60,258 nucleotides of DNA from a virus. Its lineage: Duplodnaviria > Caudoviricetes. Positions within the stretch are counted from its first letter, which is position 1. The number at the start of each line of letters is the position of its first letter. Made by a program: the position numbers and the translations under genes. Location: the IMG/VR virus record IMGVR_UViG_3300009167_000009, positions 1 through 60,258 of that record. One strand, written 5' to 3'. The notes beneath the pieces are model-generated. The model was given only the letters and a program-made list of their open reading frames with translations, was not told the origin of the DNA and did not search any database. Shown here one piece after another: positions 28,481-45,111 of this stretch.

Positions 28481-28680
28481 TTTCACCTCACGTTTGGCGA
28501 ATGGGTGGCGTGTCGGCCCCCAGGTTGGGGGAAGGGGGGAACCCACCCCACCCACCCCCATTCTTTATCTCTCATATAGATCTTTCTTTTCTTATAGAAG
28601 GATATGTATGGGGATGGCGACCATGACTTCCCCCACCTGGGGCGGCGCATGGTGTCCATCCGCCAATCGTGAGCTGAATT
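28481..28680. repeat. palindromic origin-like element, copy 1
   Basis: ~48 bp imperfect inverted arms (28487-28534 / 28627-28673) with terminal TTCAnCTCACGnTTGGC motif around an AT-rich core. Confidence 0.75.
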
Positions 28681-28683
28681 GCT

Positions 28684-29070
28684 CTAATACTCCGGCAACC
28701 CATACACCCCTTTGATGGCCTGGACCACCTCCTTGGCCCGTTTTCGTAGCGTTTCATCTACGGTCTGGATGTCCGTGAACGACCAGTCAATGCCCTTGTT
28801 TGTCAGATCCTTGACAATGGACATGGCCTGCTTGATGGTCAGGATGCCGTGCAACACCCGCTGCCCCGTCGGGATGTGGGTCAGGGTCCAATCCTTCCCC
28901 TCCTGTTTCGGTTCCATGCTGCCCACTGGCACCGTCACCGGACGATGGAGGGCGAAGATGTCCTTGACCAAGATACGAGCGTCCACAACGTAGGGATAGA
29001 ACTCTCGTGGCCTGGCCCCTGGTACCTTTATCTGGATCGTAATGCGAGTCACTTTCGGTACATTCATCAT
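28684..29070 (-). CDS. hypothetical protein
   Basis: 128 aa, AAGGAG RBS; WTLTHIPTG motif. Confidence 0.65.
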   Translation of the reverse strand: MMNVPKVTRITIQIKVPGARPREFYPYVVDARILVKDIFALHRPVTVPVGSMEPKQEGKDWTLTHIPTGQRVLHGILTIKQAMSIVKDLTNKGIDWSFTDIQTVDETLRKRAKEVVQAIKGVYGLPEY

Positions 29071-29077
29071 TTCTCCT

Positions 29078-29362
29078 TTACCAGCGATACAGATCGGGAT
29101 GCACGGTCATGGCCGGGAGCTTCCGATACAGCTCGAAGCTGACGTTCATCCACCACGCCATCCCCTGTTCTGGCCAGAGTACGACGACATGCATCCAGCC
29201 ATCTCGATGAAAGGCATGGTCATAGATGATCGGAAACCGCGCTCCGGCCGGTAACCGGGTGAACCGGGGATGCTCGTACTGGTCGGTCCATCCTCGGCGG
29301 ACGCGTTCCCGCTCGGCCGCGAGCAACAATGGCCGCGTGAAATACCGCAATCTGCGCATCAC
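29078..29362 (-). CDS. hypothetical protein
   Basis: 94 aa ORF in early cluster. Confidence 0.5.
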   Translation of the reverse strand: MMRRLRYFTRPLLLAAERERVRRGWTDQYEHPRFTRLPAGARFPIIYDHAFHRDGWMHVVVLWPEQGMAWWMNVSFELYRKLPAMTVHPDLYRW

Positions 29363-29500
29363 ATTTGCCGCCCCTTACAGGCCCGAACGGGCCACGGGCG
29401 GACCCGCAACCCGTCCCGGCCCCCGTTCGCGTCCTACAGGGACGCTAAGACGCCTTCCCGTGGTCAATTTATTGACGCCCAAACCCCGGATCGGCCCCCA

Positions 29501-29782
29501 TTACCGCATCCGCTTGAGAAGACCGATATCTCGGGGGTGGAAGCTGTGCGGCGGCGTAATCAACTTCATCACCGCCTCGGCTTCGGTTGTGGCTTCGACT
29601 TTCACCTGTTTCGGTGACTTGAATTTGCCCACTCGGATCTCCGCAATCCAGTGCGGACGGTGCGGCGGTCGCTCCCGTTTGACGGGGACTGGCGGCACGG
29701 TCGGGACCGATGGCGGCTCGGGCTGGTAATGATGCGCCCACCATACAGCAAGTATGATGACGCCGACCAGGACGAGCGTCAT
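29501..29782 (-). CDS. membrane-anchored hypothetical protein
   Basis: N-terminal TM helix and Pro-rich linker. Confidence 0.6.
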   Translation of the reverse strand: MTLVLVGVIILAVWWAHHYQPEPPSVPTVPPVPVKRERPPHRPHWIAEIRVGKFKSPKQVKVEATTEAEAVMKLITPPHSFHPRDIGLLKRMR

Positions 29783-29791
29783 GCGTGTGCC

Positions 29792-30511
29792 TCATTTGAG
29801 GTTCCGTTTTACAGACAGGTTCATCCGCCCCCCATCTTCGTATCCACGGGCATAGGCGGCTCCGTCTGCGATTCGAGGTTTTCGAGTTGATTGTGCGGTT
29901 CCCCGCTCGCGCAGATACGCGTCAATGGCTGACGATTTATCCTGCACGACCAGGGCCATGGTTGAGGCCTCCTCTCGACTGAGCTGGTTTCCGGCTTCCT
30001 GGGCACGTTTGGCCATCCGGCTGCTGAACCCAATGGCGTAGGCCGTGTGGCGCGACGACCATCCCGAGCCATAGGTGGACCGGGCAGCCCGGCGTACGGC
30101 TTCCAGAAAGATGATGAAGATTTCGGCGGCAATCGCCACGTCCTCCTCCATCCCAATGAACTGCATCTTGGACAGTCCATCCCACCGGTTCTTTCCGGTA
30201 GAGACCACGGCGCGTGTCCCGGTCAGCGTCATCACGCACGACGCCACGTTGTAGTCGTAATAGGCGAAGTCCGAGATTTTCCGGGTGTAGGCCGTGTACT
30301 CCCGGACCCGCTCCCGCAACTGGTTGACGTGTTCCGGTGTCCCCAGTTTCATCTCAACTTCTGCCATGGACAGATTGTGCCGCGCCATCATTTCCTTGGC
30401 GCGGGAGATCGCCAACAACATCTCGGCCTCGGTCGTGTTCGCGTCCGAACTGCCCAGGCGAAACAACTTCACGATGCGGTCGAGAATCTTGTCTTTATTG
30501 GCGTCAACCAT
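29792..30511 (-). CDS. DUF2786-domain protein
   Basis: KILDRIVKLFRL...EAE..A...A..MMARHNL N-terminus; AYARGYEDG C-terminus. Confidence 0.8.
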   Translation of the reverse strand: MVDANKDKILDRIVKLFRLGSSDANTTEAEMLLAISRAKEMMARHNLSMAEVEMKLGTPEHVNQLRERVREYTAYTRKISDFAYYDYNVASCVMTLTGTRAVVSTGKNRWDGLSKMQFIGMEEDVAIAAEIFIIFLEAVRRAARSTYGSGWSSRHTAYAIGFSSRMAKRAQEAGNQLSREEASTMALVVQDKSSAIDAYLRERGTAQSTRKPRIADGAAYARGYEDGGRMNLSVKRNLK

Positions 30512-30523
30512 TGGGTCTCCTTG

Positions 30524-30781
30524 TTAGTGCCGTGTGTCGGACTGCCCCCCGGCAGGGATCATCGTGTCGAAGATGGCCAGAATGGCCTCGTCCTCCTTCA
30601 TCTTAAAGTACACGACGTTGCCGCCCTGGTCATAGGACTTGAACACGAACATCCCATCCTTCTTCCACATGCATTCATAGTCCAGGTTCATCTCCTGGAA
30701 TCCGCCGTTGGTGGTCACACTGACCTGAATCAAGCCGTTCAGCGGGGCCTGGACCGGGGTTTCGTTGTCGATGGCGAGCAT
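30524..30781 (-). CDS. hypothetical protein
   Basis: 85 aa, AAGGAG RBS. Confidence 0.6.
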   Translation of the reverse strand: MLAIDNETPVQAPLNGLIQVSVTTNGGFQEMNLDYECMWKKDGMFVFKSYDQGGNVVYFKMKEDEAILAIFDTMIPAGGQSDTRH

Positions 30782-31003
30782 GATGTCTCCTTATACACTT
30801 TGCACCGTAGGGGACGGCGTACCAGCTGGTCGCACCAGTCCGTCATCCAGATGGCCTGTGTGGGCCACCACCACTTGACGCCCCACGACATGAGGCGGCT
30901 CCACTCACGGTTGTCGATAGCGTCTGCCATCGCGGACGATCCGGGTGCTCGGCCGGGATAGACGGCGACGGAACAGACACGGCCCCGCAGAATATGCGGG
31001 TAA

Positions 31004-31225
31004 CTACTTCTTGACTGGGGGGCCGACACGGATTCCTCCGATGTAGCGTTCCTGTTCGTCAATGCCGAACGCCTCGGCCAGTGCCACGGCGATCACGAAA
31101 CTCCGACTGACGTTGTGGCGACGGGCCAGCCGCTCGACCTCGTGCCGGATGTCCCGAATGACACAGGCCGGCAGGGGATCACGCCCGCCCTTCACTGGGC
31201 GTTGACGACGGATCGGCTTCTTCAT
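31004..31225 (-). CDS. ribbon-helix-helix DNA-binding protein
   Basis: IRHEVERLARRHNVSRSFVIAVAL pattern. Confidence 0.7.
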   Translation of the reverse strand: MKKPIRRQRPVKGGRDPLPACVIRDIRHEVERLARRHNVSRSFVIAVALAEAFGIDEQERYIGGIRVGPPVKK

Positions 31226-31490
31226 GGACCTCCTTCTTGGCCCACCGCTTGGCGTTCATGGCCGCGATCTTCTTCTTCCCCTCCGGGGTCTGCGTCCAGT
31301 GGGGCTTGGACGCCTTGTGGCGTTTGGTGGCGAGATCCTTGCGGATGGCCTTGGCCTTCTTCTTCAGTTCCGGCACGACGGCGGGGGTGTCTTCGCCCCA
31401 CATCGCCCCCAGGCGATCCAGGTCGTCGGCCGTGGCGGACAGCTGCGTCGCCATCGCTCGCATCGCGCTGGACAGTCCTTTGGCGATCAT
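31179..31490 (-). CDS. basic hypothetical protein
   Basis: MIAKGLSS...HWTQTPEGKKKI; ATGA overlap. Confidence 0.6.
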   Translation of the reverse strand: MIAKGLSSAMRAMATQLSATADDLDRLGAMWGEDTPAVVPELKKKAKAIRKDLATKRHKASKPHWTQTPEGKKKIAAMNAKRWAKKEVHEEADPSSTPSEGRA

Positions 31491-31735
31491 GCCTTTCTCC
31501 CCCGGCGCAACCGGCCCTTGATGGGAACGGGTGCTTCCGTGACCAGGGAAGGGTCCAGGTCGGTGCCGCCGAACACGGCGCTCAACGCTTGGGTCACGGC
31601 GGACAGTACCGTGTCGAATTCCGCTTGCCAGACGTTCATGGACTGGGTGCGCGTGATCTTTCCCTCCCCATCCAACGACTGGATGCGGACGAAGATCCGT
31701 TCGCTCGTGGGTTTCTGACCAAACTGTAACGGCAT
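31487..31735 (-). CDS. hypothetical protein
   Basis: MPLQFGQK start after AGGAGG. Confidence 0.6.
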   Translation of the reverse strand: MPLQFGQKPTSERIFVRIQSLDGEGKITRTQSMNVWQAEFDTVLSAVTQALSAVFGGTDLDPSLVTEAPVPIKGRLRRGRKA

Positions 31736-31746
31736 ACGGTGACCTC

Positions 31747-32106
31747 CTACTCGGTGAAAATGTGGACAGGCACGCCAGCACTTGCGGCGCGGTTCACCAT
31801 GTCCTTTGTCCCTTTGGACTCGGACAGGTTCGGGTGAAAGGCCAGCACCAGATGGATGCCGGTCTTCAACATCAGTTGGTTGCGGATCGGACCAGCGGCC
31901 CGTCCCTGCGTCCCCCAGTTCGCTGGGTACTCCTCCACGTCCATGTTCAGTTGCCACGCGCAACTAGTGGCCAGGGTGTCTGCGCCCCGGCATCCGCCAG
32001 CGATGACGGTGATGGGACCGACGTGCTTCTTCCGAAGCTCCAGCAACTCACGATAGATGCTGGCCCGGTTGGTCCAGTTCCGGTCGCCACAGACGAGCAC
32101 TCTCAT
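31747..32106 (-). CDS. SLOG-family (DUF2493/YspA-like) nucleotide-binding protein
   Basis: MRVLVCGDRNW, GGCRGAD, AAGPIRNQLM, SKGTKDM. Confidence 0.85.
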   Translation of the reverse strand: MRVLVCGDRNWTNRASIYRELLELRKKHVGPITVIAGGCRGADTLATSCAWQLNMDVEEYPANWGTQGRAAGPIRNQLMLKTGIHLVLAFHPNLSESKGTKDMVNRAASAGVPVHIFTE

Positions 32107-32357
32107 CGTTTGCCCCTCCGATCCCACGGATGCTCGTTTCGGTCCTCCATGTTCCGAATCTCCTGCTCGGTGTCCTTGGTTAGGTATGCGCCCTTCGGCG
32201 GGAATCCGCCACGGAGCAGCCATTGATTCAGTTCGAGGATCTGTTCCACCATCTTGACCAGAACATCCGGGTCCAAGCTGGCGGCCGGGTCCATGTCCTC
32301 GATGTCGATGCTGGCGGCCGTGTCCACGATGTCCTGCCACGCCTGTTGCGGGTCCAT
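32103..32357 (-). CDS. hypothetical protein
   Basis: MDP...LNQWLLRGGFPP; coupled to neighbours. Confidence 0.6.
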   Translation of the reverse strand: MDPQQAWQDIVDTAASIDIEDMDPAASLDPDVLVKMVEQILELNQWLLRGGFPPKGAYLTKDTEQEIRNMEDRNEHPWDRRGKR

Positions 32358-32542
32358 CAGATGTGCTCCCGTATCGTGCGGAGGATGAGTTTGGCCTGTT
32401 CCACAGCGGACACGGCCGCATCGTCCAAGCTGAGGTCAATATTGGAGTTCGCGTGCATCCCGGCCGTGATCATCCCTGCGACCAGGAATATGAGTTGCTC
32501 ACGGTCGAAGTCAATCGTAATTCGGCCATAGACTGCAGGCAT
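32357..32542 (-). CDS. hypothetical protein
   Basis: 61 aa with TGATG overlaps. Confidence 0.55.
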   Translation of the reverse strand: MPAVYGRITIDFDREQLIFLVAGMITAGMHANSNIDLSLDDAAVSAVEQAKLILRTIREHI

Positions 32543-32578
32543 CAGTCACACCCCCGTTCCAGTTTATCGGCGCAGGTG

Positions 32579-33001
32579 TCACCGTCCATACTTGCACTGT
32601 TTGCACACGCCCGGCCGGTAGGCCGATTTCCTTCGGTGACAGATCGAACACGGTTGAGGAAGCAAAGGGGCATACCGTACTCCTTTCTTACGGGGATGAA
32701 TGTCCCGCATCTGGTGTAAACGTCCATCTTCCTTCATGTGACACCGCCGACATAGCGGCACGCACTTTTCCATTTCTTCTAAAATACGCTCGATGGACGC
32801 ACCGAGTTTTACCAAGTGCGTAACGGCTGTGTGTCGATGCGCAGCGCGGACACGGTGATGCCACTCTATAGGCCAATCTTCTGGCGGCGGTTGTGTGTGA
32901 CACCCCTCACACTCGGTCTCTGCCATTACTTGTGCAAACCAATACCTATTGCGCAGTATGGCCCTTTGTTTACCGGCAGAGTATTTATCCCAATAGGGCA
33001 T
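32579..33001 (-). CDS. HNH endonuclease
   Basis: CEGC...EWHH...EMEKCVPLCRRCH; AT-richer than flanks. Confidence 0.75.
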   Translation of the reverse strand: MPYWDKYSAGKQRAILRNRYWFAQVMAETECEGCHTQPPPEDWPIEWHHRVRAAHRHTAVTHLVKLGASIERILEEMEKCVPLCRRCHMKEDGRLHQMRDIHPRKKGVRYAPLLPQPCSICHRRKSAYRPGVCKQCKYGR

Positions 33002-33447
33002 TAAGGTGCTCCACGCTCAACGGCGTCACTGCACGCATCACATTGGTAGCCCAACGCCTTGTCCTTCGGCGTCAGGCGGTTCGGTTGCCCACAGGTGGGA
33101 CAGGGCAAGTTGCGCGGGTTCGAGGGTGTGGCCGCACGCAGCGCGCTGGTGCCGCCGGGGTCCGCGAATTCGCTGCGGTCATCCTCGTCGGGATAATCGA
33201 AGCCGGTGTCGGTGTCCTCGTCCTCATCCTCGCACGAGGGGCACGGGGAATCGTTCGCGTCCTTCTCATACCCCCCGTGCGTCGGGCATTTCCCTTCCCG
33301 GCGTTTGAGTTCGGCCTCGATGAGGTCAAGTTGGGACTTCATCCGGTCGATGTCCTGGTCCAAGGACATGTGCTCCTCACGGAGTTCGTCCGTGGTATAC
33401 TCCTCGATGGGGGTGCAATCACGCTCGTCGAAGGTGATGCGAAGCAT
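33001..33447 (-). CDS. Cys-rich acidic hypothetical protein
   Basis: MLRITF start after GGAGG; several CxxC pairs; ALRAATPSNPRNLPCPTC. Confidence 0.65.
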   Translation of the reverse strand: MLRITFDERDCTPIEEYTTDELREEHMSLDQDIDRMKSQLDLIEAELKRREGKCPTHGGYEKDANDSPCPSCEDEDEDTDTGFDYPDEDDRSEFADPGGTSALRAATPSNPRNLPCPTCGQPNRLTPKDKALGYQCDACSDAVERGAP

Positions 33448-33451
33448 TGGG

Positions 33452-33763
33452 TTACCTCCCCAGGAACAGGAACCGCACGCGTGTCCAGAAGGTGCGGTTG
33501 TGACTCTCCAGTGCGTCAACCCGCCCTTCCACTCGAAGCAGGTCGTTGTTCGTGGCCTCCATGGTGTCCGTCAACATCTTGATGAACGATCCTTCTACCT
33601 CCGTGATCCGGGTGTCCAGACGGTTCAACTCCTGCGTGTGGTCGGACACGCGATCCGTCATCTCCTTGTAGGCGGCGTCCACCGACCGGACGGACTCCGA
33701 ATACCGGATCAACTGCTCCTGCATCTGCTCACGGTTTAGCACGTTCCCTCCTCTCCTTCTCAC
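33452..33763 (-). CDS. coiled-coil hypothetical protein
   Basis: Heptad-rich ORF; exact start uncertain. Confidence 0.55.
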   Translation of the reverse strand: MRRRGGNVLNREQMQEQLIRYSESVRSVDAAYKEMTDRVSDHTQELNRLDTRITEVEGSFIKMLTDTMEATNNDLLRVEGRVDALESHNRTFWTRVRFLFLGR

Positions 33764-34025
33764 ATAGCGCCTTGTACTGTTCCCCGTACTTCTTGTTGTC
33801 CTCGTAGTCCCGATACAACGCGTCTTCCTCCTCCGCCTGACGTTTCAGGGCGGCCTCGGCCTCGGCCTTGAATTCGGGTTTCACATCCAGGGGCAGCTTG
33901 TCACTGCCGTCATCCGCGATGTGGTCGCACCCTTCGCTAGCCCACTCCCCGCAGATGGGACACTTCCAATTCCCCTGTGCGGGGCCGCATGACCAGCAAC
34001 AGTAATCGCCGCACATGCAGGCCAT
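33729..34025 (-). CDS. Cys-rich hypothetical protein
   Basis: MACMCGDYCCWSCGPAQG...CPIC. Confidence 0.6.
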   Translation of the reverse strand: MACMCGDYCCWSCGPAQGNWKCPICGEWASEGCDHIADDGSDKLPLDVKPEFKAEAEAALKRQAEEEDALYRDYEDNKKYGEQYKALCEKERRERAKP

Positions 34026-34246
34026 CAGTTCCCTCCTCCGTCCAGGACGCCGTAACGTTCCGCGACGACCGCGTTCAGCTTGTCACAGAAGTCCTGGATG
34101 TCCTTCCGTGCGATGCGGGAGTCGGACCCGGCCACGACCGTCAGCACGATGGTTGCCTTCTCGTTGCCGGTGTCGTCTGCGAACCCGTGCGCGTACAAGA
34201 CATGGGTCTGCGGCGCGACACGCTTCACCGTGAACATGGGCTTCAT
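34025..34246 (-). CDS. hypothetical protein
   Basis: 73 aa, coupled overlaps. Confidence 0.55.
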   Translation of the reverse strand: MKPMFTVKRVAPQTHVLYAHGFADDTGNEKATIVLTVVAGSDSRIARKDIQDFCDKLNAVVAERYGVLDGGGN

Positions 34247-34467
34247 CCTTCTCCTCCCTTTAACAGGATGCGGTGGAACGTATCCTTGACTGGATCGACC
34301 ACGTACTTGTCATGCTGGCGTGCAGCCCACGCGGACACGATCCACATCGGCAGGGTGCGAGCTGGCCGCGCCCCTGGGTACTGCGCGGCGTCGTAGTCCC
34401 GTGCCAATTCATCCCAGGTGAGCGCTGGGCCGTATTTCCTTCGTTTTCGGATGGTGACTCGGGCCAT
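34243..34467 (-). CDS. hypothetical protein
   Basis: 74 aa, coupled overlap. Confidence 0.55.
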   Translation of the reverse strand: MARVTIRKRRKYGPALTWDELARDYDAAQYPGARPARTLPMWIVSAWAARQHDKYVVDPVKDTFHRILLKGGEG

Positions 34468-34477
34468 GATACCCTTG

Positions 34478-34777
34478 TCAGATCAACCGGACGTAGGGAA
34501 TCATGCCTGCGTCGTCGATGGCGCGGATACAGACCTTCGACAACTTGACCGCATCCTCGTTCCGCAGGTCATAGTAGTTGTCGTTCAGACTGGCCAGGTG
34601 CTGCATCCAGGCCAAGAACATCCCAGTCATCTGCTGCTGCAGAGTGCGGTGTTCGCGGTCCATGTACTCGACGAACAACTTCGCCGAGTGACCTCGGTTC
34701 GCGCAGTCGGACAGCGCACGCACGGCGGCAGCCATGTCATCCTTTTCTTTCTGTTGCCAGTCGGTGTGTTCCGCCAT
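34478..34777 (-). CDS. hypothetical protein
   Basis: 99 aa, GGAGGAG RBS; HRTLQQ...YDLRNE. Confidence 0.65.
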   Translation of the reverse strand: MAEHTDWQQKEKDDMAAAVRALSDCANRGHSAKLFVEYMDREHRTLQQQMTGMFLAWMQHLASLNDNYYDLRNEDAVKLSKVCIRAIDDAGMIPYVRLI

Positions 34778-34778
34778 G

Positions 34779-34994
34779 TTACTCCTCCAGATTGTGCATC
34801 TTGCAATACGCCTTGTACACCTTCTTGTGGTTGCCGCGCAACCCGAACTTTGTCTTTACGTAGTTGAACACGGACCCCTTCGAATAGACGAGGCCGGTCT
34901 CCATCTGCACGTGCATGGCGTGCTTCAACTGGAGTAGGTGATACATCCTGATGCCTTTCGGCGTGTCGATGATCGTCGGGCCAGTTTCTTCCAT
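34779..34994 (-). CDS. hypothetical protein
   Basis: MEETGPT start after AAGGA. Confidence 0.55.
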   Translation of the reverse strand: MEETGPTIIDTPKGIRMYHLLQLKHAMHVQMETGLVYSKGSVFNYVKTKFGLRGNHKKVYKAYCKMHNLEE

Positions 34995-35102
34995 GGGAGT
35001 CCTTTCTTCCAGCGCTGGAACGCGGCGCACCGGGCGCACACGCACTCACGTGCTGCGGTACGGCGACGACCACACTGGACGCAGGTCATGTGTGCCTCCA
35101 AT

Positions 35103-35321
35103 CTACCAGTCCACCGACTCTTCGAGTTTCTTCACCGTGCCGATGCACCCGCTGCGCCCGCAGTAACGGCACACCACGTCCAGGTAGAAAGTGGTGCCGT
35201 CCCGTTCCATCGTGACCTTGGTCCAGTCGGGGCGGTGGGCTTTGCCCTTGTTCTTCGGGCACGAGGTTTCGGTCCCGTGTTCGCGCTCGTACAGTTCGGA
35301 AAACGTCAGTTGCTCTTCCAT
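35103..35321 (-). CDS. hypothetical protein
   Basis: MEEQLTF start after GGAGG; CxxC. Confidence 0.55.
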   Translation of the reverse strand: MEEQLTFSELYEREHGTETSCPKNKGKAHRPDWTKVTMERDGTTFYLDVVCRYCGRSGCIGTVKKLEESVDW

Positions 35322-35323
35322 GC

Positions 35324-35539
35324 TTACCTCCCCGTGACGCGCTTGTGGTTGGCGCGGCAGCATCGGCCGCACACTGCACCCAGAAACCGCTCTGGGCCGA
35401 GGTCACGGCCACACTGGAGGCAGGGATGTTCGGGCGACTTGGCCTTGGACGCGCACCGGGGGCAGCGAATCCGGTACGGCGTGGCTTGATAGACCGCGTG
35501 CCGGGTCAGCCGCCCACAATCTTCACACAGGGTGGGCAT
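35324..35539 (-). CDS. Cys-rich (Zn-finger-like) hypothetical protein
   Basis: Four CxxC pairs; AAGGAG RBS. Confidence 0.55.
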   Translation of the reverse strand: MPTLCEDCGRLTRHAVYQATPYRIRCPRCASKAKSPEHPCLQCGRDLGPERFLGAVCGRCCRANHKRVTGR

Positions 35540-35541
35540 GG

Positions 35542-35925
35542 CTACTCCTTTGGCATCTGGCACACGCCGTTGCACTTGGCACAGTAATCCGGGTTGTGCC
35601 GATGCTCCCGTTCCGGAACAGTGTCTTCTCCAGAATGGTCCTCCACGACCATGACCAAGTCGCGCCGGGCGTCCAGCAAGTCAAGACGGAACGCTTCGCG
35701 GAACCCCACCTTCAACGGGATGCTGATGCGGTCGGGCATGGTCTTCCACCTGCGGATGCTGCCGTTCATCCGCACATCGCGCAGCTGTCCGTCGTTGCAG
35801 ATGAGTTTGACACGGTGGATGTGCTGTGGCAGGTCGTAGATTTCGGCGTCGGTCAGTCGCCGCACCGTCAGCTGCCGCCGTGTCTTGTGCCGGTCGTATC
35901 CGTCAGGAAGTTGAAACGAGTCCAT
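35542..35925 (-). CDS. hypothetical protein
   Basis: MDSFQLP start after GAGGAG. Confidence 0.6.
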   Translation of the reverse strand: MDSFQLPDGYDRHKTRRQLTVRRLTDAEIYDLPQHIHRVKLICNDGQLRDVRMNGSIRRWKTMPDRISIPLKVGFREAFRLDLLDARRDLVMVVEDHSGEDTVPEREHRHNPDYCAKCNGVCQMPKE

Positions 35926-36166: not shown

Positions 36167-36374
36167 GTCTGTGCCTCCATTCAGGTGTAGTCAATCGGCG
36201 GTGCTGCGGCCAATCGACGGGCGAAGGTGAATCCCTCGATCCACGGCTTGTGATAGTAGTGGGGGATGGGAATCAGCTCGTCCTCACCATAGGACTCGTG
36301 CGTTTTCCCGTACTCGAATCCCTCCATGTAGTAGAAATCCCGGTCCTCGGGTGACATATCTGTCCAGGACATGG

Positions 36375-37188: not shown

Positions 37189-37189
37189 A

Positions 37190-37579: not shown

Positions 37580-37639
37580 GGTGCCTCCCATGAAAGCGGG
37601 CGGGACCACTGGGATGTGGCCCCGCCCTGCGGTGAACGC

Positions 37640-37867
37640 CTACTCGCTGGTGATGGTGATCGTCACGGACTTGCCCTTAGACACATCCAAGGACTTGTGG
37701 ACGTAGACCACGCCCCCGCGCCCGATCAACAGGGGCCACTTGTCCCCTTCGAGCGCGGCCATCGGGCCGAACTTGTTGTAGGCCGCCGAGCTGTCGGTGG
37801 CCGGGATGGTGTAGCTGACGGACACGGGCGCGACCGCCTTCGGGGCGGCGTCTTCCTTCTTGGCCAT
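37640..37867 (-). CDS. hypothetical protein
   Basis: MAKKEDAAPK start; GGAG RBS. Confidence 0.6.
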   Translation of the reverse strand: MAKKEDAAPKAVAPVSVSYTIPATDSSAAYNKFGPMAALEGDKWPLLIGRGGVVYVHKSLDVSKGKSVTITITSE

Positions 37868-37937
37868 GATCATCTCCTCTGCAGGTTACGAACGCCTCAC
37901 GTGAATGGGACCAGGGGTGGGGGCACCCCCGGCTGGA

Positions 37938-38504
37938 CTACGCCGCTTTCACGCGGTTCGTCTTGATGGTCATGCCCTTCGCCTTCGCGACGGGCGCGGT
38001 CGGCTTCGGCGCGACGGGTGCGGCCTTGGTCGGCTCGGCCTTGGGCGCGGGGGCCGTCTTCGGCGCGACGGGCGCGGCCGACTTGGCCTCGGTCACGGCC
38101 GTCCGCTTGCCGTCCACGAGGATGAACTCGGGGACGGAGAAGGTGCGGCCCCGGAACTCCTTCGAGTGCCGACCCGCGTTGAAGTCCCGCCGTGCGCCCT
38201 GCACGTGGAACTCGGTGTAGGCGACGGCGTTGGGGAACACCCGGCGCCAGTCGGCCGCGAGCTCGACGTCGGTGAGCTTCTTGGTCGGGTTGACCGCGAA
38301 GGTCATGTCCTGGTACTCGGCGACGTGGACGCGCTTCGGCTGCCCGTCCCACGTCACGGTCGCCACGAACTTGCTGGGCGCCTTGGGCGGGGCGTCCTTC
38401 GCGGCAGGGGTGAGCGCCCCCGTCTGCTTCGTGGCAGCGGCGGCGGTGGCCGGCACCTTGATGGTTCCGGTCTTGGCGGCGACGGCGGCGGTCTGCTTGG
38501 CCAT
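37938..38504 (-). CDS. Lys/Ala/Pro-rich putative DNA-binding protein (paralog of 27302-27793)
   Basis: Shared core domain; H1-like APK/PVA tails; GGAGG RBS. Confidence 0.7.
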   Translation of the reverse strand: MAKQTAAVAAKTGTIKVPATAAAATKQTGALTPAAKDAPPKAPSKFVATVTWDGQPKRVHVAEYQDMTFAVNPTKKLTDVELAADWRRVFPNAVAYTEFHVQGARRDFNAGRHSKEFRGRTFSVPEFILVDGKRTAVTEAKSAAPVAPKTAPAPKAEPTKAAPVAPKPTAPVAKAKGMTIKTNRVKAA

Positions 38505-38613
38505 ACGGCCCTCCAGAATGTGTCCCTCCGACCGGGAGGGTGCGGGGTGTGGGGAACCCACTCCACGATGCCCATGACCTGCGGGGGCAGAGGTCACGGG
38601 CGTCCTGCAATGG

Positions 38614-38796
38614 CTATTCCTCACGCACGAGCGTGACCTTCACCTCGGAAATCTCCTCGGGCAGCAACGCGTCGTTCGACCGGCTGCAATCGTGTGTCAG
38701 CTGCCGTGGGATGCTTTCCAGCAGCACGGCGATGGCCTCGTCGGGCGGGACCATGGCCTCGTCGGACACCAGAAACTCTACTTTGAACTGCCTCAT
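38614..38796 (-). CDS. hypothetical protein
   Basis: 60 aa downstream of a putative promoter. Confidence 0.5.
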   Translation of the reverse strand: MRQFKVEFLVSDEAMVPPDEAIAVLLESIPRQLTHDCSRSNDALLPEEISEVKVTLVREE

Positions 38797-38916
38797 ATAC
38801 GCACCGCCTTTCTGGAATCATCCCCTGCGTCGGCCGTGGCCGACACCATGATCGTCGCACAATCGAGGTAACTTGCAACCTACAAAATGTGCGACTTTGG
38901 CCTAAAAACGCACGAT

Positions 38917-39171
38917 TTAGCAGTGATCGCACGCCGACTGGATGGCCTCGGCCAACGTCGGCTTGAATTCCCCCTCCGCCGTGTGGTGGCCCCCGGCCCA
39001 GCTGGTGCCATCGGTGCTTGGCCCCCAGGCGTCGAAGGTTTCCCATGTCACTTGCCAGCCCATGCGCTCGTCACGCACGAAGCTGGTTTCGGTGCGGTGG
39101 TCCCACGATTCCTGCTGGAAGAGGGACAACAACGCGGCCACGTCTTTCTCGGTCACGGGCTGTGGTGTCAT
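38917..39171 (-). CDS. hypothetical protein
   Basis: 84 aa, GGAG RBS. Confidence 0.55.
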   Translation of the reverse strand: MTPQPVTEKDVAALLSLFQQESWDHRTETSFVRDERMGWQVTWETFDAWGPSTDGTSWAGGHHTAEGEFKPTLAEAIQSACDHC

Positions 39172-39174
39172 CGG

Positions 39175-39663
39175 TTACTCCAAGTAAAACCATCCCTCAT
39201 TGAACACGGGGAGCGTGGTCAAATCTTGCCACGGAGTCACCAGTGTGTAGATGGTGCCATTCTCGTGCGTGGACCCTGGCCCCACGACGTAGCCACCTTC
39301 GCCACGCACATCGAAGCGCGTGGCACGCGCATTGCGCTCACAGGGGGTGTTGGCCTGGTAGTAGAAGTGACGGCCGCGCCCCGTCAGCACCATCAGGGTA
39401 ATGGGCAAGTGTTGTTTGCACCACTCGACTTGCGTGGGGGTGTCGGCGTCCACGACCACCAGGTTAGAGATGGCCCCGGTCACCAGCCCGAGGTTATAGG
39501 GCATCCCCAACTTTGGGTCGAGGAAGCGGCGGTCCCATTCCGCGCATTGCTCGCGGGTGGGCCGCTCGGTCTGGTAGCGTTTCCACGGCATCAGCGGCAC
39601 CTTTTGTCGCTGCCGTAGCGGGATGGGGCACAGCCCCATGTCCCATGCCTCGGTGAAGGTCAT
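39175..39663 (-). CDS. stand-alone bifunctional primase-polymerase (Prim-Pol) domain
   Basis: KVP..W..YQ, NLGLVTG, VVVDAD, TGRGRHFYY, DVRGEGGYVVGPGS. Confidence 0.85.
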   Translation of the reverse strand: MTFTEAWDMGLCPIPLRQRQKVPLMPWKRYQTERPTREQCAEWDRRFLDPKLGMPYNLGLVTGAISNLVVVDADTPTQVEWCKQHLPITLMVLTGRGRHFYYQANTPCERNARATRFDVRGEGGYVVGPGSTHENGTIYTLVTPWQDLTTLPVFNEGWFYLE

Positions 39664-39879
39664 GTCACCACTCCTGTTCTTCGATGCCCCCGAATTGGCG
39701 GCTGCACTGGACCAGATACCGCGTCCACTCGCGGTTGAACTGCCGGCGAGGGCTGATGCGCCGGGGCGTTGGGCCTTCGGTGACGATGACTGGATCGATG
39801 GCCAGTCGCGGGTCGTCGGCCACCGCCAGCAACAGGTGGTCGGCGGCTTTTTCCAAGTGGTCGGACACGAATGCGGACT

Positions 39880-40236
39880 TCACAGTTTCACCCCATCGGG
39901 CAGGAATGCCGCCTTTCCGGGCGGTGCGGTGCGCTGCAGCTCATCCCATGCGCTCACGCACACGGGGCAGCCCGGTCCCTTCGTCACGAACGGAATCCAC
40001 AGCACTTTGCGGTCGTCGATCATGCCGTTTGCCAAGCGTAGACCGAATCGCTTGTTCGGCACGGGAGCCATGTGGCCCCGCGAGATGGTGCGCTCGCCCC
40101 AGACCGGGGTGCGTGCGCCGCAGTGGATGCACCGCACCAGCGGCGCCCCGGCTGCATCGAACGTGTACAGCGGTTCACGCTGCACAGGGACGGGGCGCAT
40201 CGGCTCCGTCCCGAGTTTGTCCCAATTCACGAGCAT
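39880..40236 (-). CDS. hypothetical protein
   Basis: 118 aa with two CxxC. Confidence 0.55.
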   Translation of the reverse strand: MLVNWDKLGTEPMRPVPVQREPLYTFDAAGAPLVRCIHCGARTPVWGERTISRGHMAPVPNKRFGLRLANGMIDDRKVLWIPFVTKGPGCPVCVSAWDELQRTAPPGKAAFLPDGVKL

Positions 40237-40314
40237 AATGTGAAGGTGCCCCTTTCCGGCCGGGATTCGGCCATACGATGATCATACGGCTCGTCCCGAC
40301 GCTTTGGAACTTTA

Positions 40315-40566
40315 TTAGTCGACTTCCCACACGTCGAGCAACGCGTCCAGCGTGTCGAACACTTCGACGGGTGCCTTGGGGTCGAAGCTGAACATGTTGG
40401 TCAAGTACACCTGCCAGCCAGCGGCGCGTGACTCGTCCAGCACGACGCCGATGCGCCGGTTCAGGCCGCGGTCGTGTGTCTTCACGGGGGCCATCAGAAA
40501 GGTCACCCACGCGTTCGGGTTCTGCAAGTAGCGGCGGTCTTCATTGCGTGTGTCGTCACTCATCAT
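40315..40566 (-). CDS. hypothetical protein
   Basis: 83 aa, AAGGAG RBS. Confidence 0.6.
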   Translation of the reverse strand: MMSDDTRNEDRRYLQNPNAWVTFLMAPVKTHDRGLNRRIGVVLDESRAAGWQVYLTNMFSFDPKAPVEVFDTLDALLDVWEVD

Positions 40567-40777
40567 CGTCTCCTTCGTATTCCCGCTGGCTCTGCGGGAT
40601 CAATTCCTGCCCGAACAGGTTGTAGTAGCGTCCGCACTCACACTCCGTGTCGTCGAACTGGATCGTGACTTCACGACCGCATGGGCAAGTGCCCACCGTG
40701 CGCTTCTTCGGCTTGATGCCGAGCGGGTCCGTATCGGTCGGGACCGTGAGCAAGATGGTGTGCTTATTCGTGAGCAT
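40556..40777 (-). CDS. hypothetical protein
   Basis: CxCG...CxCGRYYNLFGQEL; GGAGG RBS. Confidence 0.6.
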   Translation of the reverse strand: MLTNKHTILLTVPTDTDPLGIKPKKRTVGTCPCGREVTIQFDDTECECGRYYNLFGQELIPQSQREYEGDDDE

Positions 40778-40787
40778 TGTCCCTCCG

Positions 40788-41027
40788 TTAGTCCCGGTTC
40801 GGGAGCAGCCAGCGGTCGCCGTCCTGGGTCACGGCAATCCAAGTGCCATTCTTGCCTTCCAGGATAGCGAACATCCGGCCGTCCTGCAACGGACGTTCCC
40901 GTGTGATCTGCCAGTAGGTGGACCCGCTAAAGTAGCGGGGGTGGTCAAGAACCCGGACTGGTCGTTCCGGTCGCGCCACGATGCTGCCGCAGGTCGGGCA
41001 CGCGTAGCGTCGAGCAATGTCCCTCAT
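40788..41027 (-). CDS. hypothetical protein
   Basis: 79 aa, CxxC, ATGA overlap. Confidence 0.5.
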   Translation of the reverse strand: MRDIARRYACPTCGSIVARPERPVRVLDHPRYFSGSTYWQITRERPLQDGRMFAILEGKNGTWIAVTQDGDRWLLPNRD

Positions 41028-41362
41028 CGCACGCGCTCCTCAAAGAAATAGGCCACGGCGTCCCGTGCGGACTGGTCGCACGAGAGGTCAAAGTCCTTGT
41101 CGAGCTCAATCGTCCACCGGATCTCGCCGATGCCGTTGATGCTCGCGATGAAGTACGGGTACTGGTTCCCGTAGCCTCGCGGATACGCCACCGAGCCCTC
41201 GGGATCCCAGACCGCGACGTAGCTGTTGCCCCGAGGACTCCACCACACCGCGTCGGTGGAGTGCATGTGGGGCAGGGTGCGAGCGACGCCGTGCCCACCC
41301 AAGCTGGTGAGCGTGCGCCCCTCGCGCAACACGAACTGCCTTGCCATGATGTTGGCCTCCAT
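41024..41362 (-). CDS. hypothetical protein
   Basis: ORF in early cluster; start could be the later Met after GGAGG. Confidence 0.55.
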   Translation of the reverse strand: MEANIMARQFVLREGRTLTSLGGHGVARTLPHMHSTDAVWWSPRGNSYVAVWDPEGSVAYPRGYGNQYPYFIASINGIGEIRWTIELDKDFDLSCDQSARDAVAYFFEERVR

Positions 41363-41403
41363 TCCAGCGGCCCATCCGCTGGCATTAGCTCACGACCACG
41401 GAC

Positions 41404-41778
41404 CTACGAGATGCCGCCCTTGGCGCGGGGCATCTCGTTGAACAGTTCGGGCATCTGGCCCAGAATGGTGATGGACACCACGCTGGACAGGCCCACGGCC
41501 ACATCGTAGTTGCGGTCGGCCGGGGTGTACGTGAAGTACGCTTCGCCGTGCGCGTCTGGCCCAGACATGTAAAACCCCTGGGCAGTGGTTACGGTGACGG
41601 CGTTCGACTCCGCGTTGTGGATGAGCAACGTGACCCCTCGCGTGGCGGGGCGCACGCACGGCTCCGCATACGCAGGGACCGGCACGGCACGGTCCGCTTC
41701 CGTGGCGTAGACGGCCACATTCGGCTCGTCTGGGACCGGATACGCGGTCGGGACTGGGACGGGTCGCACTTTCTTCAT
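41404..41778 (-). CDS. hypothetical protein
   Basis: MKKVRPV start after GGAGG. Confidence 0.55.
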   Translation of the reverse strand: MKKVRPVPVPTAYPVPDEPNVAVYATEADRAVPVPAYAEPCVRPATRGVTLLIHNAESNAVTVTTAQGFYMSGPDAHGEAYFTYTPADRNYDVAVGLSSVVSITILGQMPELFNEMPRAKGGIS

Positions 41779-42107
41779 GACGCCCTCCGAACGGTGCGGT
41801 TGACTGAACGCGGCACGGTGTCGCAGCATGGGCCTGCCAACGCGGGGCGACCGCCGCCCACGTGGAGGCGTTGCGCGATGAGCCACGGGGCTGCCTTGTG
41901 GCACCGGGGGCACTGGAACCCGAACTGATTGGGACCGGGGAGCCACACGTCTCCCGGTTGGTGGACGGGCCTGGGGACTGTGATGGGTTGCGTGCTGGAC
42001 GGGGCGGATGCGCCCCTGCCCAGGCCGCGCCCGTTCCGGCCGATGACGGCGAGGGACCGGCGGCACCGGGAGGGGTCGAGGGTGAACGGCGGATGTGGTT
42101 TCTGCAT
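41775..42107 (-). CDS. hypothetical protein
   Basis: MQKPHPP start after AAGGA; CPRC; ATGA overlap. Confidence 0.45.
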   Translation of the reverse strand: MQKPHPPFTLDPSRCRRSLAVIGRNGRGLGRGASAPSSTQPITVPRPVHQPGDVWLPGPNQFGFQCPRCHKAAPWLIAQRLHVGGGRPALAGPCCDTVPRSVNRTVRRAS

Positions 42108-42919
42108 AGCGATTGTCCTTTCCCGGACGTGGGTGAGCTGCGGTGACGGGTCGGGTCGTGAGCTAATGGCAACGGACGGTGGACTGCGGAGTGGAGGGGT
42201 GGACCGGTGGGAAACAGGGGTCCGGTCGGCGGCACGCGCTGCGCGGCCGACCGGACCCGTGCTCTCACGTGCGCGGGTGCGCTCGGTTGGCCGTGTGCGA
42301 CAAGGATTTGGGCGACTTACCGCGACGTCAGCGAACCCACGGTTCCGACGACTGCGGCGACCGGCCGGGTGCGGGATCTTGGGCTTGGGTGCCTTGGTCC
42401 CCACGCATCCAGAGCTTGTCCGGTCCCTGTCTCGTCAGAATGTGTGCCACCCGCCGCACTGCGGCGAATGGTGCCGTGGGGGAACTGACGACCGCGCTGG
42501 GTCGCCGGGGCGCGTGTTTGCTGCGCGCCGGGTGTCTGCGCGTTGGTCACGGGTGCCACGACTGACAGATAAACCGCCCGGCCACCAACTTCGTTGGCGG
42601 CGTTGTGGCGTCCTGCGTGGCGTGTCCCGATCTGCGCAAACCCCTTCCCTTCCCCGTCGGGACCGTGGACGGACACGGCCCTGCCGATGCGGTTGTCAAA
42701 GCTGCGACGCCCACTCACGGTCCCGATTTCTGCGGCATGTAAGTCGGACGGGACGCGCCACATGGTTGCTGGCACGAAGCCGGTGGGGGCCGACGCGCAG
42801 ATGGCGTCGGCCGTGGGCGGTAGGACACCGATGGACTCGACTGTATACGGCGACGTGAGACGGACCCGTCCGTCCCCCGTCCGTCCGCCGCATCCGCCGT
42901 GTCCACATGCCATGTGGAC

Positions 42920-42955
42920 ATGGTATCAATCCTATTGGGGATAGCAACTACAAAA
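42920..42955 (-). promoter_or_regulatory. sigma70-like promoter with upstream TTTTGTAG motif
   Basis: TTTTGTAG-TTGCTA-N16-TACCAT with TG extension. Confidence 0.55.
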
Positions 42956-43539
42956 GGTGGACTGAAACCTACAAAAGTGTCTGACTTTTGTTCAGAAAAA
43001 CAGGGCGAGCCTGCTATGGAAGAAAGACGGACAGAGGGGAGAGTGGCATCCTCATTGCATGTGGTGAGGGAAAAGTAGGGGGAAGGGAAAGATTAAGTGT
43101 TAGCCAGTTTCGAGTTCTTCGAAGCCCTTCCGCTCGGTCTTTCTGACTACGATCTGGCCCTCAGGGGAGTCCTTTCTCCACGCGGTGTAGTTCTACAAAG
43201 CCTATACAGCTGAATACCGCCTCGCGAAGACTTTAAGCCCCTTATTCTACATCTTACTACGAGTGTAGACGAGATAAGGCTCACAAAGTGGAACATACCA
43301 CGCATCGTCCGCTTTATAGACTACATAAGGCTTGCTTACGCCTTTCTCCAGCCCAGCCTGGCCGAGACTGCCTATCGTCTTTCTGGAGTAGAGAATAGAT
43401 AAGGCTAGGGCTAGGTGGCGGCGGCTCCAGCGCGCGCTTCTAGCGCTAGCGCTCCCGGATCTCAGGCAAGCCCTAGGCGGCGATCCGAAGCCTCGCCCCT
43501 TCCTCAGGGGGAGCGGAGCAGAGGCTGGGCACCCGGCCG

Positions 43540-43580
43540 AAAAAAAACGACCGGACCGGCCGCGATGGCCGATCCGGCCG
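43540..43580 (-). terminator. intrinsic terminator
   Basis: - strand CGGCCGGATCGGCC-ATCGC-GGCCGGTCCGGTCG followed by T8. Confidence 0.85.
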
Positions 43581-43596
43581 TTTCCGGCCGTTCCGT

Positions 43597-43827
43597 TTAC
43601 CGCATGTTCACGTCGCGTAATGCCGCCAACGTCATCATGTCCGGCGATACATAACACGCGTCATGCACCCCGCAATCGGCGCGTCCGCACGCGGGCGCAT
43701 ATCGGCACGTCGCCATCCCATCCGCACAACGGCGGATGTTGCGGGCAATCGGGCATCCACGCCATAATCCCGGCACCCACGTTTCGACGAATACCCGAAT
43801 TCGGTATATGTTCATTGTCGTGTCCAT
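43597..43827 (-). CDS. small Cys-rich hypothetical protein (AG/CT-free gene 2)
   Basis: 76 aa; stops just before the terminator. Confidence 0.5.
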   Translation of the reverse strand: MDTTMNIYRIRVFVETWVPGLWRGCPIARNIRRCADGMATCRYAPACGRADCGVHDACYVSPDMMTLAALRDVNMR

Positions 43828-43871
43828 GGAAACGGCCGGATCCCGCGTATGGGATCCGGCCGATTGTCCGA

Positions 43872-44543
43872 TTACGCCGTTTTGGTGTCACGCCACACAC
43901 GGGCGGCCGTTTCCGCCATCGCATTGTTCATGCCGGGTGTGTCGTTGTGGTCGTGGGCGACGAAACGCCCGAACGTCGACGCGAAATAATCCGCGTGGGT
44001 TCGATAATCGCATTTCGTGGTCCCCAACACGAAACGCCACACGGCCGCGCCGAAATTCACCGGGATCCGTTTCCACGGGATCCCGGCAACCATGAACGCA
44101 ATGTAAATCGCGTTTTGTGTCCGGGCGATATCGGACCCGGATCCCAACGTATACCGGTGACCACGTGACGGTGCCGGGGTCGCGTCGGCCGCGTTCAACG
44201 CGTCGATCCACGCGTCAAACGATGCCGCGTTCCGATCCGTGTCCGGGATCCGATTCCACGCGACGTCAATTGTCGCGCACATCGGGCCGATCCACGCGGG
44301 GACGTTTCCGACATGTTCGGGAAACAATACCCGGAACGTGTCCGGAAACGTCGGCACGGCCGGAACGTCGACGGCCGGAACGTCGGGGACAATCCCGACC
44401 AACGTGTCGGCCGACGTGGACGTGTCGGCCGTGGACGTGTCGGCCGACGTGGTAACGATGTCGGCCGGAACGTCGGCCGTGGACGGTGCCGGGATGGCCG
44501 GTACCGTGTGCCGTTTCGAACCCCGAACGGAACGTGTGGGCAT
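43872..44543 (-). CDS. hypothetical protein with low-complexity N-terminus (AG/CT-free gene 1)
   Basis: 223 aa from MPTRSV; AG-free RBS GCGGGGA; TSAD/PADV repeats then a globular domain. Confidence 0.7.
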   Translation of the reverse strand: MPTRSVRGSKRHTVPAIPAPSTADVPADIVTTSADTSTADTSTSADTLVGIVPDVPAVDVPAVPTFPDTFRVLFPEHVGNVPAWIGPMCATIDVAWNRIPDTDRNAASFDAWIDALNAADATPAPSRGHRYTLGSGSDIARTQNAIYIAFMVAGIPWKRIPVNFGAAVWRFVLGTTKCDYRTHADYFASTFGRFVAHDHNDTPGMNNAMAETAARVWRDTKTA

Positions 44544-44653
44544 GTTGTTTCCCCGCGTCGTAACGTCGACGCAACCGTCCACGCCACACGACACGCATAC
44601 GCCGTTCGCGGGATTGCGTACGGCGGAAACGGGGTCGCGTGTCATGGCGACCG

Positions 44654-44733
44654 ACCAGTTCTTGAGCTGAAGCCCTAAAGTGGAAAAAGTGATTTTACCA
44701 GTTCTTAAGCTTGCCCCCTAAAGTGGGAAAAGT
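44654..44733. repeat. tandem 37 bp direct repeat (period 43)
   Basis: 44654-44690 versus 44697-44733, 31/37 identical. Confidence 0.85.
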
Positions 44734-44749
44734 CAATAAAGCTACGAGC

Positions 44750-44958
44750 AATTCAACTCACGTTTGGCGAACCCCCCCCGTGTCCGGTGGTGCGGCCCCA
44801 TTGATGGGAAGTCCCCCAATAACCACCCGATCTTATATGTCTTAAGTAATTTTTTTTTTTTAACTAAGGATCAATGATCATGGGGGCCAACCCGCCTTCC
44901 CCCATTACCGGCCCCCCTCCCCGCCCACCACGTCCATGTGCCAACCGTGAGGTGAATT
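44750..44958. repeat. palindromic origin-like element, copy 2
   Basis: aattcaactcacgtttggc ... gccaaccgtgaggtgaatt around an AT-rich core with T12; same architecture as 28481-28680. Confidence 0.75.
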
Positions 44959-45105: not shown

Positions 45106-45111
45106 CCCCCC

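Follow-up and report, generated by a model that had tools for sequence, protein, structure and literature searches.

The window analysed here is the whole of the IMG/VR virus record IMGVR_UViG_3300009167_000009 (Duplodnaviria; Caudoviricetes), a linear sequence of 60,258 base pairs (bp) with an estimated completeness of 96%. In this study, we describe two non-coding elements of about 200 bp in this window, E1 (28482-28678) and E2 (44752-44956), and our comparisons support the view that they are related, functional-looking cis elements which bracket the early gene module of the phage. At a probability that we put at roughly 40%, the two elements would be twin replication origins, perhaps coupled to transcription. 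Both are delimited by one word, TTCANCTCACGNTTGGC, which has exactly four matches in the window at up to two mismatches. All four are perfect, 0.15 matches are expected by chance and none of 100 shuffled sequences contained four or more. The matches form two inward-facing pairs, TTCACCTCACGTTTGGC (28482-28498, plus strand) with TTCAGCTCACGATTGGC (28662-28678, minus strand) in E1 and TTCAACTCACGTTTGGC (44752-44768, plus strand) with TTCACCTCACGGTTGGC (44940-44956, minus strand) in E2. At three mismatches a single further match appears (30899) where 2.08 are expected, which is chance level. That the four exact copies are arranged as two inverted pairs and that no additional site exceeds chance is in favour of an origin. 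An earlier note, made by inspection of the same letters, had reported the word as four copies in two inward-facing pairs, and this is what the word search returned; its left motifs were misplaced by 1-2 nucleotides (nt) and the positions of its right motifs denoted their far ends.

E1 measures 197 bp and consists of an outer word, a GC-rich arm, an AT core, a second GC-rich arm and the inverted outer word. E2 has an E1-like build over 205 bp (205-209 bp as the span of the outer pair). The AT-rich cores, as located by a scan for core/flank contrast, lie at 28560-28609 in E1 (50 nt, 0.76 AT) and at 44829-44878 in E2 (50 nt, 0.80 AT), and both have the composition of an AT-rich unwinding element. 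No other site in the 60-kb genome has an AT-core/GC-flank contrast as strong (flank AT 0.29; next site 0.62); the overall GC content is 60%. A run of twelve T (44850-44861) in the E2 core and a run of eight C (44772-44779) in the E2 left arm are the only A/T runs of at least 9 and C/G runs of at least 7 in the window. As the earlier note had described, both elements contain the arms GGGAAG...CTTCCCCCA, the sequence GTCCAT before the right word and a T-rich core that ends in AAGGAT, and the cores are in the same orientation (local score 40 vs 16 for the opposite orientation). The E2 left word together with its six preceding bases is 92% identical over 24 nt to the reverse complement of the E1 right word region (pair I22). 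Inside, E1 and E2 are strongly diverged; the outer words alone are shared and a common crossover core is lacking. Two old paralogues of one cis-acting module would best explain this combination.

The description of both elements as palindromic holds in part. For this analysis each arm was shuffled separately, with its composition kept, in 500 shuffles. The outer words are significant inverted repeats in E1 as well as in E2 (0/500 shuffles as good in either case), but complementarity of the inner arms exceeds the effect of composition in E1 (z 5.5) and not in E2 (z 0.0; 318 of 500 shuffles as good). Among nine elements from this and related genomes (see below), the outer inverted words were significant in all nine (0/500 shuffles each) and inner-arm pairing beyond composition was seen in two; therefore, a long hairpin is not a conserved feature. 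Against whole-sequence shuffles, the single-stranded fold of the whole element reached z -6.1 for E1 and -3.6 for E2. A canonical G-quadruplex motif, GGGGGTGGGTGGGGTGGG, is located in the E1 left arm (28542-28559, minus strand) on the outward-reading strand. Small outward open reading frames (ORFs) in the arms were considered as genes and rejected, as the close relative has a TGA after 10 codons, plus a frame change in E2.

The positions of the two elements follow the gene organization of the window. Gene calling was based on GC at third codon positions (GC3), and the called ORFs were scanned with Pfam (93 ORFs) and PHROGs (57 ORFs). Three gene blocks were recognized. The structural block on the plus strand extends from 45094 through the end of the record and then from 28 to ~10950; it contains the terminase (49146-50753, plus strand) and encodes a Mu/P23-45-like portal, a capsid protein and a tail terminator. 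The replication block on the minus strand (11502-28466) encodes a primase-like protein of 734 amino acids (aa; 11502-13706), an intein-bearing family-A DNA polymerase, AAA_24, ThyX, a PD-(D/E)XK nuclease and an SNF2-type helicase, the gene of which (25516-26958) lies 1.5 kb below E1. The early block, also on the minus strand (28684-44645), comprises ~45 genes, most of them small and most without annotation; among the annotated members are DUF2786/DUF7168, a SLOG domain, an HNH endonuclease and a Prim-Pol. E1 takes up all the space from the last early gene (stop at 28684) to the gene that opens the replication operon (start at 28466); both genes are on the minus strand. The left word of E1 stops 16 nt short of the start codon of this downstream gene, directly upstream of its GGAGGGG ribosome site. 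E2 is situated in a 448-bp gap at the only divergent strand switch of the window, 4.2 kb upstream of the terminase. Between the elements lie ~16 kb of mostly small minus-strand ORFs. Thus the gene call confirmed the earlier note, according to which the two copies enclose ~16 kb of small early-type genes and the second copy lies at the strand switch.

Conservation was followed first in a close relative, represented by two contigs of one metagenome (L125 and L126), which is 82% identical to the window in nucleotides around E1 and 70% around E2 and retains both elements with identical words. In its E1, the left arm and core are ~99% identical to those of the window, but a 40-nt stretch of the right arm differs at ~15 positions without compensating changes; the outer word beside this changed arm is unchanged. 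Because the right arm has changed uncompensated and the word, the left arm and the core have been kept, it is the words and the core that selection maintains, and not the pairing of the arms. More distant relatives, G007 (51.9 kb) and G009 (76.2 kb), were found via ThyX and terminase queries. Their replication and structural genes follow the order of the window at 33-59% protein identity, and each genome carries two elements of 201-211 bp at places syntenic with E1 and E2. Element A, the equivalent of E1, has the replication genes of the SNF2 side on one flank and the DUF2786 early genes on the other, and element B, the equivalent of E2, is found at a divergent switch 3.6-4 kb upstream of the terminase. 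A further contig, L087, the terminase of which is 54% identical, has a terminase-side element of 199 bp. By direct computation, eight of the nine elements span 197-211 bp; the ninth, E2 of the close relative, has 205 bp by pattern match. In each of the genomes G000, G007 and G009, the paired elements are the two strongest AT-core/GC-flank contrasts.

The outer words themselves are specific to the lineage: TTCAnCTCACGnTTGGC in the window, ...GACGGAAwCTCTG in G007, AAATGGGGGGCGTTTCC in element B of G009 and GTGAACGTTTTATTTC in L087. They have been replaced from lineage to lineage, each time as an inverted pair. G007 and G009 are 95-99% identical over most of their length and 77-82% identical around element B, where both words have changed together. 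The earlier note had regarded absence of the motif from relatives as grounds for giving up the idea. The exact motif is indeed missing in the distant relatives, but other inverted words occupy the same places; the window motif at up to three mismatches showed no excess over a reversed-pattern control in G006-G010. Judged by this conservation, we consider E1 and E2 to be real control elements, a conserved pair of cis-modules with lineage-specific inverted words.

While gene order is unchanged, the two asymmetric cores have a common orientation in the window (40 vs 16) and opposite orientations in G007 and G009 (35 vs 63-69). The cores of G007, G009 and L087 share the asymmetric block TTTCTA-16/17 nt-TA(A/T)AT(A/T). 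A search of IMG/VR with the core word of this lineage gave 29 loci, five of them real, in G007, G009 and the L087 contig. As an nhmmer profile of the block had no match in the window, G010, G012 or G013, the window cores resemble those of the G007 lineage in build and not in sequence. In G007 and G009, left arms are rich in pyrimidines and right arms in purines (skew 0.45-0.67), and G-quadruplex motifs on the outward-reading strand are present in seven of the eight arms of these genomes and in one of the four arms of the window. Therefore, outward nascent strands or primers would be purine- and G-rich.

Outside this group, searches for the pattern gave few loci. A paired-pattern scan of metagenome contigs returned three, two real ones and one unrelated perfect palindrome. 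The single word had 71 loci in IMG/VR with one match each and never a pair, which is chance level, and the paired pattern was found at three places in 185,579 species genomes, none of them related beyond the pattern. Chance pattern matches include positions 2001-2176 of L129 (an Acidobacteriaceae metagenome-assembled genome), a perfect ~62-bp inverted repeat around a 70-nt core, and positions 2-197 of L124, a perfect 197-bp palindrome at the contig start and possibly an assembly artefact. Terminase relatives were found at 12 loci, of which those at 88-94% identity end short of E2. G001 covers only the parts that match 45090-60258 and 1-16150 of the window and holds no motif. Single-protein queries of IMG/VR with SNF2 and with P0002, the product of the first leftward gene, found no relatives. 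No DNA match to either element region was obtained by blastn against a collection of 50,697 phage records, in which the best protein matches are 27-29% identical and no cultured phage is close. Phages that share the replication module only have smaller palindromic AT-core elements with arms of C/G runs (G006, 5205-5305; G011, 9767-9889; G014, 29784-29928). Those of G006, a genome of 43% GC, and G011 share a CCCCTCCC...TTTTTAATTTAAT block with the cores of G007, G009 and L087, and those of G006 and G014 are located upstream of packaging genes. Full-text literature searches brought up no description of such elements.

How might such a module act as an origin? Its build is a meltable AT island of ~50 bp within GC-rich arms of G/C runs, bounded by two head-to-head words of 17-20 nt, ~200 bp overall. 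A sequence-specific, phage-encoded protein would bind both words, and its specificity would drift with the phage lineage. Two copies of this protein, or a dimer of dimers, might constrain the ~180 bp between the words into a small loop, after which the AT island would open and bidirectional DNA synthesis would start there, probably aided by outward transcription from the core. One origin would head the replication operon (E1) and the other would be placed between the divergent early and late-side operons (E2). Binding, core melting, initiation of replication and the identity of the binder are what we infer from the sequence. Potentially, the purine- and G-rich outward primers of these elements would suit R-loop priming or the archaeo-eukaryotic-type primases of the phage (Prim-Pol and the 734-aa protein). 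The earlier note had proposed twin origins with initiator sites flanking an unwinding element; its anatomy was a fair description and position and build are kept in relatives, although a role as promoter or operator would be nearly equally compatible with the elements.

Paired origins are known from other viruses. In the published account, bacteriophage SPP1 has two related origin elements, oriL and oriR, ~13 kb apart, with protein-binding repeats and an AT-rich unwinding element; one is beside the replication genes, the other is intergenic between transcription signals, and the AT-rich islands are the strongest composition bias of the genome (PMC6316719). E1 and E2 are similar to oriL and oriR in being paired, related AT-rich modules of which one lies by the replication genes and one is intergenic. 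However, the same account gives direct repeats bound by gp38 and an oriL inside gene 38 (PMC6316719). E1 and E2, in contrast, have one inverted pair each, 65-75 bp from the core, with GC-run arms between, and a gp38-like initiator was not found. For herpes simplex virus (HSV), the consulted source describes OriS and OriL as redundant origins with initiator boxes on both palindrome arms, where dimers bind cooperatively and bend the intervening DNA, and the initiator UL9 is a superfamily 2 (SF2) helicase (PMC12543377). The likeness lies in the inverted boxes around an AT-rich centre, with an AT core in nine of nine elements, and in the SF2 (SNF2-type) helicase gene below E1. HSV palindromes are much shorter (tens of bp), with boxes that abut a short AT spacer. 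E1 and E2 span ~200 bp with long GC-rich arms, and the likeness is one of working principle only. The UL9-type family was not found among the 93 ORFs, and no phage-collection record has DNA similarity to the element regions.

Two further phage systems share single traits with E1 and E2. The primary origin of T7 lies at the boundary of the early and DNA-metabolism genes and consists of promoters and an AT-rich stretch, where transcription activates initiation; the promoters are those of the phage's own RNA polymerase and flanking inverted words are not known from it. E1 likewise has an AT-rich stretch at the boundary of early and replication genes, but no RNA polymerase gene was found among the ORFs scanned with Pfam and PHROGs. 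The satellite phage P4 has two cis sites, ori and crr, ~4.5 kb apart, with a shared recognition word in multiple short iterons and the alpha primase-helicase as initiator. Two separated sites that share one word are also seen here, and the primase-like 734-aa protein is a candidate binder only.

Several observations weigh against an origin. A distance of 65-75 bp, taken up by the most GC-rich DNA of the region, separates the words from the AT core; the origins used for comparison have binding sites that abut the unwinding element. Each element has one inverted pair and no array of three or more initiator-binding repeats (iterons). No recognisable initiator family was found in Pfam, PHROGs and NCBIfam scans. 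The TTTCTA-16/17-TA(A/T)AT(A/T) block is promoter-like and always aimed at the downstream operon (replication genes for A, terminase side for B), and since an origin does not need such regularity, this constant direction counts against one. The GC skew shows no turn at E1. It does turn at E2, but its minimum falls on the strand switch there, so that effects of replication and of transcription are indistinguishable by skew. Finally, relatives that share only the replication module (G010, G012, G013 and others) have no clear element at SNF2; two of 11 loci were positive, both of them those of G007/G009.

The alternative that we take most seriously, and rate only somewhat below the origins, is that E1 and E2 are purely transcriptional switch modules. 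The AT island would then be a promoter or a back-to-back promoter pair and the words operators that loop ~180 bp, timing middle or late expression of the replication operon (E1) and of the early and late-side operons (E2). In line with this, both elements are located at operon heads, the AT island stands out locally against a genome of 60% GC, and the TTTCTA block points to the downstream operon in each case examined in G007, G009 and L087. As the E1 left word abuts the ribosome site of the next gene, the promoter of that gene must be inside E1 or upstream. A terminator-like hairpin was located outside E1 (28415-28431, plus strand) in the sigma-70/terminator scan. That scan detected no promoter-like site by the sigma-70 consensus in E1 or E2, which is weak evidence against promoters there, as this consensus may not be that of the host. 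A single promoter direction also fits poorly with cores that are co-oriented in the window and inverted in G007/G009, and the model gives no role to the long arms of G/C runs. Known looped operator pairs such as the GalR/HU repressosome have sites ~100-200 bp apart around an AT-rich, bendable promoter and one bridging regulator, and each operator is dyad-symmetric. In contrast, each word of E1 and E2 is asymmetric and the pair is inverted, with candidate regulators only.

The genes on both sides of E2 bear on the same alternative. Both of the divergent genes that flank E2 in the window have promoter-like or leader blocks of their own outside the element, a point in favour of an origin. The first rightward gene, P0001 (45094-45798, plus strand), encodes a protein with two zinc-finger-like motifs (CxxPxC...WCxxH and CxxPxC...TCxxH) and has a positional orthologue in all four lineages; a zinc-finger-like protein encoded beside E2 in every lineage would suit a switch, and P0001 is a candidate binder of the outer words. 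On the other hand, this gene has its own promoter-like extended -10, read from the sequence as TGGTATGAT (45097-45114, plus strand) and followed by 6 nt and the ATG at 45112, a methionine that is invariant across lineages and lies ~140 bp outside E2. The counterpart in the close relative, TGGTATAAT, stands six bases before the same invariant methionine. The start at 45112 looks leaderless, and the distance of the extended -10 from the word varies from ~20 bp in G007 and 85 bp in L087 to 140 bp in the window; both points speak against the switch model. In all four lineages (window, L126, L208 and L087) a conserved methionine follows a -10-like hexamer (TATGAT, TATAAT, GACAAT, CATAAT) after 6-8 nt. 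Leaderless mRNAs are suggested by this arrangement, which, together with distant matches to actinophages, hints at an actinobacterial or similar host. The first leftward gene, P0002 (43872-44645, minus strand), belongs to the early block and encodes a C-terminal domain that is conserved in all four lineages; its true start is probably the conserved methionine at 44543. Two tandem 43-nt units, identical at 33 of 43 positions, occupy 44654-44739 between E2 and this gene, outside the palindrome. The figure is from direct comparison, as Tandem Repeats Finder missed the duplication. A single, near-identical 43-nt unit is present in the close relative, and the segment probably serves the early operon as a conserved leader or promoter. 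In runs X4 and X5, unitigs end at 44650-44652, next to the duplication.

Apart from P0001, candidate binders are the zinc-ribbon proteins below E1, the SNF2-type helicase and the primase-like 734-aa protein. The zinc-ribbon-like proteins are two small Cys-rich paralogues encoded in tandem just downstream of E1 (28224-28466 and ~27920-28222, minus strand), and the gene downstream of the E1-equivalent in G007 shares their CxxC...GGxA...C motif. Beyond weak zinc-finger hints, the flanking proteins matched no Pfam or NCBIfam family at E ≤1 and had no PDB relative. Their structure-atlas matches were all <0.9 with TM <0.5 and serve as leads only.

A more novel form of the origin reading, which seems improbable to us, is that E1 and E2 represent an undescribed kind of bidirectional phage origin, composed of an AT island, mirror arms of C-runs and G-runs and a ~200-bp loop clamped by the words. 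Retention of two such elements around the early module would let it be copied first or most. The reader of the words might then be a fast-evolving phage protein, perhaps the adjacent double zinc-finger protein, and both outward nascent strands or primer RNAs would be purine-rich and prone to form G-quadruplexes or R-loops.

It is very unlikely, in our view, that the elements are recombination sites, acting either as a site-specific pair by which the 16-kb early module is excised, amplified or inverted, or as preferred seams where phages exchange modules. Two related sites do bracket a module, and divergence changes sharply in or beside the elements: between window and relative the E1 left arm and core are ~99% and the right arm and beyond ~82% identical, the proteins to the left and right of E2 are 42% and 70% identical, respectively, and the E2 region is the 77-82% patch in the otherwise 95-99% identical G007 and G009. 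However, the Pfam and PHROGs scans yielded no integrase, resolvase, invertase or transposase family, although a host enzyme could still act. The copies share short words only, with no crossover core in common, and core orientation differs between lineages at the same gene order. The proposal of the earlier note that the sites excise or amplify the early module is thus disfavoured. Contigs of run X1, which is possibly that of the source sample, bridge E1 and E2. No E1-E2 hybrid joint was listed in the assembled contigs of four runs, which is neutral on excision, as contigs cannot show rare forms; since they do not reveal read starts or depth either, they are equally neutral on genome ends and on origin firing.

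Packaging or entry signals are a still less probable explanation. Under it, the elements would be pac-type sites, where terminase binds the words and cleavage takes place in the zone between them, or they would flank an early region that enters first and act as its injection-stop or boundary signals. E2-type elements are located 1-4 kb upstream of terminase or portal in the window, G007/G009, L087, G014 and G006, and the symmetry of the words about a central zone is similar to pac layouts in P1 and SPP1. E1, however, heads the replication operon and is distant from the packaging genes. The terminase belongs with Mu-like ones (28% identity), nothing places genome ends at the elements and terminal repeats were not found in the record.

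The idea of mobile elements of the miniature inverted-repeat transposable element (MITE) type, with the early module as something like a composite transposon, is largely refuted. Bacterial MITEs such as Correia elements have 100-400 bp, terminal inverted repeats, intergenic positions and hairpin potential, and E1-type elements share these traits (197-211 bp, terminal inverted repeats of 17-20 nt, intergenic, hairpin potential). Unlike Correia-type MITEs, they lack target-site duplications (no direct repeat of 3-10 nt flanks either element, and AATT at E2 belongs to the palindrome) and copies in hosts: no related copy was found in the 185,579 species genomes, and the single word matches in IMG/VR were never paired. 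There are only two copies, syntenic in lineages with 40-55% protein identity and strongly diverged inside as old paralogues, and a transposase was not found among the 93 ORFs. Least credible is a structured RNA or long 5'-leader hairpin for processing, antitermination or translational control, with the word acting as RNA on outward transcripts: the E1 fold lies well below shuffles (z -6.1) and one word on both outward transcripts would be reminiscent of paired nut sites, but inner-arm pairing beyond composition is confined to two of nine elements, the E1 right arm changed without compensation, the small outward ORFs are not kept and Rfam gave no match at gathering score, only sub-threshold microRNA and small RNA noise (E 0.15-0.66) in the two element regions.

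Further features of the window were noted. The family-A DNA polymerase (13813-16974, minus strand) bears an intein with an HNH domain (Pfam Intein_splicing 458-709 and HNH_3; insert 14833-15697), and the relative G001 (locus L089) is contiguous across this 865-nt insert and represents an intein-less allele. A free-standing HNH endonuclease gene (32579-33001, minus strand; phrog_3106) has a small neighbour gene (32357-32542, minus strand). A contig of run X3 cleanly skips both (joints 32579->33041 and 32357->32542), which is a presence/absence polymorphism of early genes. A 972-aa protein (1900-4818, plus strand) contains three tandem repeats of ~960 nt and a 1011-aa protein (4819-7854, plus strand) a periodic array with a 69-nt repeat (repeat families D1-D3 and D8-D10 for the two proteins together); neither matched a Pfam family, and both are probably tail or fibre proteins. 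From 36000 to 43000 the GC skew is neutral to positive (maximum +0.096) despite minus-strand genes, unlike the remaining minus-strand block. By-eye inspection, the only check made for these sites, revealed no convincing DnaA boxes, CtrA sites or sigma-54 site. A tRNA scan found no tRNA.

The phage group to which the window belongs is uncultured. No other non-coding signal in its genomes is as clear as the twin modules, which mark the borders of the early, replication and late-side blocks. The words differ between lineages, and do so even between the near-identical G007 and G009; co-variation and binding should therefore reveal which protein reads them. As switches, E1 and E2 would set out the regulatory logic of the group; as origins, they would depart from the textbook arrangement in layout, with distant inverted sites, GC-run arms and purine-only outward strands.

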